Source: Biomphalaria pfeifferi
Taxonomy: Eukaryota
Length of the DNA: 64,000 nucleotides
Direction of reading: 5' to 3'
NCBI GenBank assembly: GCA_030265305.1
Contig: JASAOG010000245.1
Location: 105,822 to 169,821, forward strand
Shown here: in pieces, positions 24,147-25,875 of the stretch
Position numbering within the stretch: position 1 is the stretch's first letter
How the letters are laid out: each line of letters starts with the position of its first letter
Made by a program: the position numbers and the translations under genes
The notes under the pieces: generated by a model
What the model saw: only the letters and a program-made list of their open reading frames with translations
The model's database searches: none
What the model was told of the DNA's origin: nothing

Positions 24147-25445
24147 TTATGAGACAGAAGAAATAGGATTCTTGCTGGAGCCCATTTTGTTTAGGACCTC
24201 ATCGAGCCACTGGAGTGGACTGTTGATGTGAATCTCTATCCAGCAAGGGGTGGATGTCACATCCTGTCTGTGGTACTCGGCGCCCCACCCCTTCACAAAA
24301 GACATGCGTATTATACACATTTTATGCAGTTCGTACACCGCCTCATACCCCAGGTGAACAGATTGGTACAATAGTGTGGAGAAATCTCTGTTGTCGAAGA
24401 TCTTTAAGGAACACCCTGGTGGAATCTTGCATACGGTTGTCGGGTGGAAACCATAGGCATAGTTGGAGTTGCGGCTCTGGACAAAGATGGAACTGTCACT
24501 AAGGCACTCTGCGTAGACCTCGCCGCCAACATAGTATAGATGGACTCCCCTGCCTATGTGTCGCCTAGTATTCTCTATGGTGGAGTTCCTATTGACGTTG
24601 GATAAGAGGCCGAGACAGAATCGACCAGAATTTGAAGGATCAGTAAATCCGTCAACAATAACACTGTTGGCTGAAGCTCTGTACTGTTCCCCTACTCGGC
24701 TGTTGAGCTCATAGTACGAAATGTGGCACCACGAGTCCAGTTCTTTGTAACACACTGTCTGAAGCGGAGGCGTCGCTGAGGGGGTGGAAAAAGGGGTCCC
24801 TGTTGGGGTGTTGAGGTGGTCTGTTGTGTCCATGAACATTGGTGTCACGTGGTCGTTGCTGGTGGGATAGGGCGGCGAAGGAGTTCCGGATGAAAGGCTG
24901 CAGGAGCTGTAAGGACTATAAGGTGCCTGCAAAGGAGAATGCTGCTGCTCAAAGGAAATGTTCTGAGGCATTGTTGGCTCTGGAAGAGGCTGGTACGGAG
25001 GCAGCACCTCGGTGAACTCATCATATCTCGGGACCAACACAGGAGGGAGCACCGGCGTTTCTATGCGGCGATAGTGGTAAGGGTTGATACAGATCTCACT
25101 TTGCTTAGAGCTGAAAGGGTAGCGACAAGTATCGACAGACTTTAGCTCATGATGCGACTGAAGGTCAGGCCACCGCCACACTCTGCAGTAGATCACATGT
25201 GGCAGCCCCTTTTTGTGCGACACCTGCAGCCTACCATCAGATGACCGTTGGATGGTGACGCATTTGGAATTGGGGTCTTTGTCTTGTATGGCCCTGGTCA
25301 GGTCTTCCAGGACGCCCTTTTTCTTCTTTAACTTCTTCATCAGGGAGTCCACGGCTTTTTTGGCCCAGTCAGACTCTTCATCCCCCTGCTTCCAGCCATT
25401 GCGTCTCTTGAAAGAAAACAAGCTACTGAAGGTGGAGGTCATCAT
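24147..25445 (-). CDS. SMAD1/5: BMP-type receptor-regulated Smad (Smad1/5/8, Mad orthologue), complete CDS of 432 codons in one exon
   Basis: MH1 domain: [18 protein letters not shown]...[30 protein letters not shown]...[23 protein letters not shown]. Pro/Ser-rich linker. MH2 domain: [15 protein letters not shown]...[57 protein letters not shown]...[40 protein letters not shown]-terminal ...NPISSVS* is the SSxS phospho-motif of Smad1/5/8. True start is ATGATG at 25445 (track ORF starts 16 codons earlier at a non-ATG). Confidence 0.9.
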
Positions 25446-25477
25446 CCACTCACATGCAGCTGAAACTCTTGTTGAAC

Positions 25478-25500
25478 CTGGGAAATACAACAAATATATT
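25478..25500 (-). other. 3' splice acceptor (polypyrimidine tract plus AG) of a 5'-UTR intron of the Smad gene
   Basis: The minus strand reads ...tttgttgtatttcccag|GTTCAACAAGAGTTTCAGCTGCATGTGAGTGG ATGATG.... The 5' non-coding exon(s) lie upstream and were not located. Confidence 0.5.
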
Positions 25501-25509
25501 TTTAGAGAG

Positions 25510-25875
25510 TCATCTATCTATTACAAGAGTTATATGGCTCTAACTATAGGTTACATATCTATTACAAGAGTTATATAGCTTTAACTATAGGTTACATATC
25601 TATTACAAGAGTTATATAGCTTTAACTATAGGTTACATATCTATTACAAGAGTTATATAGCTTTAACTATTGGTTACATATCTATTAGAAGAGTTATATA
25701 GCTTTAACTATAGGTTACATATCTATTACAAGAGTTATATAGCTTTAACTATTGGTTACATATCTATTACAAGAGTTATATAGCTTTAACTATAGGTTAC
25801 ATATCTATTACAAGAGTTATATAGCTTTAACTATTGGTTACGTATCTATTAGAAGAGTTATATAGCTTTAATTGT
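25510..25875. repeat. Minisatellite, 41-bp unit, about 9 copies, inside the Smad 5'-UTR intron adjacent to its acceptor
   Basis: Unit ggttacatatctattacaagagttatatagctttaactata with variants (tagg/ttgg, tggctc/agcttt). Confidence 0.9.

Follow-up and report, generated by a model that had tools for sequence, protein, structure and literature searches.

A third, intronless BMP-type Smad gene in Biomphalaria and lymnaeid snails, probably an old functional retrogene

Introduction

How did a complete gene for a bone morphogenetic protein (BMP)-type Smad come to lie in a single coding exon, and does a 41-bp minisatellite just upstream belong to an intron of that gene? The locus that raises these questions lies in 64,000 nucleotides (the window) of the Biomphalaria pfeifferi assembly GCA_030265305.1 (contig JASAOG010000245.1, positions 105,822 to 169,821). 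An initial annotation of the window had called the gene a Smad1/5/8 orthologue with an intronless coding sequence (CDS), and had offered lineage-specific intron loss or an old retrogene as explanations. In this study, we found by sequence comparison that the gene is a third, fast-diverged Smad1/5 paralogue and not a one-to-one Smad1/5 orthologue. The locus probably holds an old and functional copy, of the retrogene type, of the BMP-responsive Smad1/5 genes.

In molluscs, both the dorsoventral axis and the shell are patterned by BMP/Dpp-Smad signalling. The principal laboratory models among gastropods are Biomphalaria and Lymnaea, and B. pfeifferi is a schistosome-vector snail. GenBank and RefSeq already list the gene (KAK0042284.1; B. 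glabrata XP_055878636.1). KAK0042284.1 of B. pfeifferi and the window sequence agree at every residue, and the agreement extends to ten residues before the Met; the nearest proteins are Biomphalaria entries named 'mothers against decapentaplegic homolog 5-like', in a cluster that includes the B. glabrata entry. Literature searches on intronless or retrogene Smads in molluscs and on Smad paralogues in Biomphalaria found nothing relevant. We found no paper that describes the gene as a conserved retrogene; the gene itself is one more example of a well-known retrogene kind.

The window gene encodes a BMP-type receptor-regulated Smad

The CDS is one uninterrupted open reading frame (ORF) of 1299 nt, 432 codons plus TAA, that runs through MH1, linker, MH2 and the SSVS tail; the intronless coding sequence proposed in the initial annotation was confirmed in this continuous frame. 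Pfam detected MH1 (PF03165) at amino acids (aa) 29-129 with 1.8e-41 and MH2 (PF03166) at aa 238-408 with 1.1e-66. The top solved-structure matches were the MH2 domain of SMAD1 (1khu, 2.4e-110) and the MH1 domain of SMAD5 (5x6g, 7.6e-67). In the alignment to 1khu, the BMP-type L3 loop of the window MH2 is identical to that of SMAD1. When aligned to the canonical snail gene, the DNA-binding beta-hairpin and the Cys/His zinc ligands of MH1 are intact, and the motifs KCV, TCRYPF and ICINPYHY are kept. The protein ends in NPISSVS, which contains the SSXS receptor phosphorylation motif. The MH1 hairpin, zinc ligands, L3 loop and SSVS are common to the canonical BMP-type receptor-regulated Smads (R-Smads), namely vertebrate SMAD1/5/9, Drosophila Mad and mollusc Smad1/5. 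By its MH1 domain, L3 loop and SSXS motif, the window protein belongs to the same class.

The window Smad differs from these canonical proteins as an extra, lineage-restricted copy with a shorter linker, an altered PPxY motif and a deletion at the start of MH1. In length, the linker falls about 20 aa short of the canonical one. At the Smurf-binding PPxY position the window protein reads TPSPPY, in which Ser occupies -3 relative to Tyr, so that the canonical PPxY is lost in Biomphalaria; the canonical gene reads TPPPAY, and the Lymnaea paralogue reads TPPPPY, in which PPPY is kept. A separate LPPY is present earlier in the window linker. The Biomphalaria paralogue also has a 5-aa deletion (TSPAV) plus LL>RN at the MH1 start. 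Its identity to the canonical protein of the same genus is 66%, whereas canonical proteins across phyla are roughly 85-90% identical, a range judged by eye. Phosphorylation by BMP type I receptors and complex formation with Smad4 are predicted from the conserved motifs alone. Judging from the protein sequence, it most likely works as a third Smad activated by BMP receptors, one in which regulation through the linker has changed.

The window gene is distinct from the canonical Smad1/5 genes

Two canonical Smad1/5 genes are present in each of B. pfeifferi, B. glabrata and Bulinus, and the pair is 94% identical (protein clusters P0008 and P0009). Consecutive accessions in Biomphalaria and Bulinus suggest that the two copies are tandem neighbours. 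The canonical planorbid proteins are far closer to the Smad1/5 of other animals than the window protein is. Their tails read SSMS, and the intronless paralogue keeps SSVS. We reconstructed the exon structure of one of the two canonical B. glabrata copies (P0009, on sequence L004). It has seven coding exons in 9.8 kb, and its six GT/GC-AG introns fall after aa 47, 135, 193, 247, 320 and 374. The window protein aligned colinearly with P0009 through all six intron positions, each of which is without an intron in the window gene. In B. glabrata GCA_025434165.1, the parent lies on JAKZJK010000001 and the paralogue on JAKZJK010000009.

The window gene has counterparts in lymnaeids. The Lymnaea stagnalis counterpart (P0002) is 74% identical, likewise single-exon and likewise near SPT3, the gene that neighbours the window Smad; a second lymnaeid paralogue sequence was found on contig L009 (SRR26439020). 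The comparison of exon structures in related species, which the initial annotation had recommended, gave a divided result: the Lymnaea paralogue is also intronless, whereas the canonical B. glabrata gene is split. A search of 5.8 billion proteins with a paralogue profile left two clusters alone above a clear gap in score, at 1025 and 931 bits, compared with 770 bits or less for all canonical Smads. In a neighbour-joining tree, the paralogues formed a long-branched clade with 100% bootstrap, which joined the heterobranch canonical Smad1/5 at 62%. Heterobranch-specific residues are common to the paralogues and the heterobranch canonical Smad1/5. Based on the tree placement, the lymnaeid counterparts and these residues, the duplication arose within Heterobranchia, prior to the split of Planorbidae and Lymnaeidae.

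The ratio of nonsynonymous to synonymous substitution rates (dN/dS) was 0.038-0.059 among three Biomphalaria paralogue sequences, and 0.028 between the two lymnaeid paralogues at a dS of 0.78. The dS between the Biomphalaria and Lymnaea paralogues is saturated. These ratios indicate that the paralogue is functional and under strong purifying selection.

Origin of the intronless copy

All six parental coding introns are absent from the window gene, and an intron-containing parent is retained at another locus, on a different contig. Because the six coding introns are gone at once and intron-bearing parents are kept elsewhere, we infer retroposition, which is a deduction from these patterns and not a demonstrated event. 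The parent would have been a heterobranch-type Smad1/5 gene with six coding introns, whose processed mRNA was reinserted in the genome before the Planorbidae-Lymnaeidae split, next to SPT3. The copy diverged fast early on, which gave it its long branch, its shorter linker, the change of PPxY to SPPY and, in Biomphalaria, the N-terminal 5-aa deletion. Since this early divergence it has been under strong purifying selection beside the two canonical Smad1/5 genes. The old retrogene that the initial annotation had offered as one alternative thus fits the evidence, with all introns absent, parents persisting elsewhere and purifying selection. Mammals and Drosophila are known to have functional retrogenes that gained an untranslated exon or intron at the 5' end. 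The window Smad shares with them a single-exon CDS, a retained parent, long purifying selection and an apparent acceptor near the ATG. It differs from them in that poly(A) and target-site-duplication hallmarks are undetectable, and in that its 5' exon is a candidate and its splicing putative.

Several observations weigh against this origin. No poly(A) remnant was found: the first 2.8 kb 3' of the stop codon lack any run of 8 or more A, and the nearest such run lies 2.9 kb downstream. No target-site duplication is on record, no dedicated search for one having been made. Decay of both hallmarks is expected, because the saturated dS against Lymnaea marks the insertion as old. Neither the annotated Physella proteome nor the DNA within 10 kb of the Physella SPT3 gene yielded a paralogue. 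An acceptor is present in the canonical gene too, about 40 nt before its own ATG (L004, AG at 2959-2960). This position resembles the acceptor-like sites of the paralogues at -32 and -45, and an intronic pyrimidine tract there would be unexpected in a classical retrocopy. Both points favour a Smad1/5 duplicate made at the DNA level, which would have kept the ancestral intron of the 5' untranslated region (UTR) and then lost its six coding introns through 3'-biased recombination with reverse-transcribed mRNA. We consider such a history unlikely, since parent and paralogue have no detectable homology upstream of the ATG and the paralogue lies on another contig than the parents, beside an SPT3 gene that also looks retroposed. 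Retroposition is the simplest account of six introns lost simultaneously, and retrogenes commonly acquire 5'-UTR introns. That the window gene could be the Smad1/5/8 orthologue of its lineage, which simply lost its coding introns, was suggested by its being the sole BMP-type R-Smad in the window and by its full set of R-Smad features. This orthology, as named in the initial annotation, is very improbable and was rejected: B. pfeifferi, B. glabrata and Bulinus all have canonical Smad1/5 genes as well, which are much closer to the Smad1/5 of other animals, the canonical B. glabrata copy examined bears introns, and the window gene, with its low identity to the canonical one, sits with the Lymnaea gene on a long separate branch. 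A processed pseudogene whose frame stayed open by chance would likewise have no introns and evolve faster than its parent. The chance of this is negligible, since the ORF is intact in at least five Biomphalaria assemblies or contigs and two lymnaeids and every functional motif is retained. The dN/dS values in both the Biomphalaria and the lymnaeid comparisons, at 0.03-0.06 and also at saturated-to-high dS, led us to reject it.

The 5' boundary of the coding exon

The initial annotation had described a strong acceptor upstream of the ATG as showing that the gene is still spliced in its 5' UTR. The acceptor-like sequence tttgttgtatttcccag is real, with its AG at 25479-25478, and so is its distance of 32 nt from the ATG at 25445. 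The strength and the splicing were over-read, since at least one equally pyrimidine-rich YAG site with an AG-exclusion zone is expected by chance in any 60 nt of the AT-rich window with P~0.20. The Lymnaea paralogue (L002) has a stronger pyrimidine tract and CAG|G at -45 (AG at 9954-9955), with a chance of about 0.03 per 60 nt. The flanks of the Biomphalaria and Lymnaea loci are unalignable, and the CDSs alone align. The lymnaeid contig L009 starts 0-3 nt from the acceptor-like site and stops about 20 nt past AATAAA; by its sequence it looks like an mRNA exon. The CDS model of KAK0042284.1 is flagged partial, and the first full codon after the AG is its start. The B. pfeifferi gene models were built with BRAKER2, PASA transcripts and EVM (PMC10075465).

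We give somewhat better than even chances to a coding exon that starts at CAG|G 25478/25477 as the last exon after a 5'-UTR intron. An upstream non-coding 5' exon would then be joined to the coding exon at 25477, with a conserved block at 27.8-28.2 kb as the candidate exon, and the 41-bp repeat would sit inside a 5'-UTR intron gained after retroposition. On the other side, no spliced transcript was seen, and both L009 and the B. pfeifferi CDS model carry no upstream exon; these boundary data would also fit a transcription start at the site. A Logan contig from another Biomphalaria (L001, 98% identical; run SRR16036442, which no paper was found to cite) is colinear through the acceptor into the repeat, which would speak against splicing if the contig were RNA-derived. 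It ends 30 nt (k-1) into the repeat and, at the other end, 285 nt past the stop codon, before any poly(A) signal; these ends fit a genomic contig. A fully intronless gene, in which CAG|G is the transcription start region and the repeat is promoter-proximal and not intronic, is less likely than not. In its favour, the acceptor motif could arise by chance as calculated above, CAG resembles an initiator, and both genera have A/T-rich TATA-like motifs at 20-40 nt upstream. Against it, the distance of these motifs from the site, about 19-25 nt in Biomphalaria and about 38 nt in Lymnaea, is not the usual ~30 nt. Short-read contigs seldom reach an exact 5' end, and a stop at AG|G better fits a branch of the de Bruijn graph at a splice junction. 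Both families retain the pyrimidine tract and CAG|G in flanks of which nothing else can be aligned, and the block 2.3 kb upstream, conserved to CDS level, looks like a promoter.

The conserved block is GC-richer and contains TGACGTGG and CACGTC motifs, which resemble cAMP response elements and E-boxes, as well as G-rich runs. Its identity between B. pfeifferi and B. glabrata matches that of the CDS (Table 1). It contains no long ORF, and an Rfam scan of 22-32 kb gave no match. It is a candidate promoter or 5' exon, but may instead be a conserved element that has nothing to do with the gene.

The B. pfeifferi leader contains a minimal upstream ORF (ATG-TGA) at 25455..25450 on the reverse strand, out of frame. 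A 1-nt indel sets this ATG in frame in B. glabrata (MKVMM) and L001 (MPVMM). Because the upstream ATG is out of frame in B. pfeifferi, the conserved start is the ATGATG at 25445. A GTGAGTG 7-mer common to the parent and the window 5' UTR, at equal distance from the acceptor, was judged coincidental, being absent in the B. glabrata and L001 paralogues.

Tandem repeats upstream of the gene

Tandem Repeats Finder reported 8.7 copies of the 41-bp unit with 96% matches, and eight full units were counted at three or fewer mismatches, compared with none expected by chance. A unit search found the unit nowhere else in the window. Because it is confined to the array within the window, the unit is not a dispersed element. 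We compared copy numbers in four assemblies, one of B. pfeifferi (the window) and three of B. glabrata. The 41-bp unit and a second, 57-bp unit were present in 8.7 and ~2 copies in the window, 13.5 and 9.6 copies in L003, 10.3 and 2.6 copies in L007, and 20.0 and 6.6 copies in L008. The 41-bp array is therefore a true variable-number tandem repeat (VNTR), and the variation in copy number expected by the initial annotation was borne out. The 57-bp VNTR lies just upstream of the 41-bp array (L003 8753-9292, L007 4268-4413, L008 3659-4028). Head-to-tail 41-bp units with 94-97% identity and a variable copy number are what the array has in common with minisatellites and VNTRs in non-coding gene flanks; it differs from those systems in that its intronic or promoter-proximal placement is putative.

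The coordinates and counts in the initial annotation were essentially correct, those of the 41-bp tandem array included, but it placed the array about 25 nt from the acceptor AG. The spacing is 35 nt. This spacer, gatgactctctaaaaatata... (25514-25480), is common to all Biomphalaria sequences aligned and contains the branch-point-like motifs tgAc and cuAa. In B. glabrata and L001 it is about 78 nt long, with an extra ~45 nt, and the proximal ~35 nt are conserved. Because the conserved spacer holds such motifs, nothing forces the branch point into the repeat, and the earlier claim that it must lie inside the first repeat unit was not supported. If the intron exists, its branch point would probably lie in the conserved 35-nt non-repeat spacer and not in the repeat. 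The CDS of the paralogue is tightly constrained even though the repeat varies more than two-fold in length (8.7 to 20 copies). An effect of copy number on splicing or expression is speculation.

Implications for work on snail Smads

The window Smad is a tidy, unsurprising case of a long-lived functional retrogene. A bolder proposal is that the third BMP-Smad was neofunctionalised in hygrophilan snails, with a rewired linker, an altered N-terminus of MH1, a new promoter and 5' exon, a role distinct from that of the canonical pair, VNTR-modulated expression and a place in a permissive 'retrogene nest' beside SPT3, a second intronless gene specific to Hygrophila. As a whole, this proposal is improbable. 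If neofunctionalisation did occur, possible roles include the germline, early cleavage, and the patterning of shell or chirality. Knock-down, pSmad1/5 staining and expression studies in these snails have three BMP-type R-Smad genes to reckon with. The intronless copy has the same C-terminal tail as vertebrate SMAD1, and pSmad antibodies therefore probably cross-react with it. As polymorphic markers among B. glabrata lines, the 41-bp and 57-bp VNTRs could be used directly.

Features and neighbouring genes

The features of the locus are listed in Table 1. The 3' flank is 95-100% conserved between B. pfeifferi and B. glabrata down to at least 23000. A 248-nt match between Biomphalaria and Lymnaea at 23526-23761 was rejected as AT-rich low complexity and not conservation. 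Upstream of the VNTR, there is a degenerate (TC)n/(CT)n-rich microsatellite of about 165 bp (27279-27447) and a (GA)n run (26250-26272).

Table 1. Positions of features at the Smad locus, in window coordinates.
Feature	Position	Strand	Evidence
Minimal 3' UTR to the first poly(A) signals, ATTAAA 23799 and AATAAA 23761	23761..24146	-	Sequence
Single-exon CDS of the BMP-type R-Smad paralogue	24147..25445	-	ORF, Pfam, PDB matches, identity to KAK0042284.1
5'-UTR segment, 32 nt, from acceptor-like boundary to ATG	25446..25477	-	Sequence, three-species alignment, protein N-termini
Acceptor-like pyrimidine tract and CAG (tttgttgtatttcccag)	25478..25494	-	Putative 3' splice site or transcription-start region
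Non-repeat part of the 35-nt spacer, with branch-point-like motifs	25495..25514	-	Three-sequence Biomphalaria alignment
41-bp VNTR, with a TATATAA-like motif per unit in gene orientation	25515..25871		Tandem Repeats Finder, unit search
Second VNTR, ~2 copies of a 51-57-bp unit	25888..25968		Repeat-family search; array in B. glabrata
Candidate promoter or non-coding first exon	27800..28240		Sliding identity 96-100%, B. pfeifferi vs B. glabrata

The neighbouring gene, SPT3 (SUPT3H), lies at 19634..20740 on the forward strand; it encodes 368 aa with PF02269 and is 100% identical to KAK0042283.1. Its CDS is single-exon in Biomphalaria (L003 14772-15881), Lymnaea (L002 18212-19306) and Physella (L005 10001-11083). 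In Aplysia it has at least 11 coding exons (L006 10001-21236), and in Bradybaena the gene range is 371 kb. The search gave only a single SPT3 cluster for Biomphalaria, and the gene is inverted in Biomphalaria relative to Lymnaea. The distribution of exon structures suggests that SPT3 is probably a retrogene replacement in Hygrophila. A precedent for such replacement is amphioxus SYCP1 (PMC5803294). SPT3 is likened to it by its single exon in Hygrophila and its one Biomphalaria cluster; the window Smad differs, since its parents persist as two canonical copies.

An exon-like ORF at 10193-10696 on the reverse strand is probably part of a flanking multi-exon methyltransferase gene (L003 17998 onward; Physella L005 14975-19679); the fragment alone gave no Pfam match. 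Because this gene beside SPT3 is multi-exon, the locus is not generally intron-poor. The window also contains transposon remnants. One is a reverse-transcriptase ORF (RVT_1, 6.8e-35) at 47126-48229 on the reverse strand. The ORFs at 33999-34688 and 41442-41861, both on the reverse strand, are related via a segment of about 130 aa, which suggests a dispersed repeat. The ORF at 53035-53541 on the forward strand showed a weak match to C2H2 zinc fingers.

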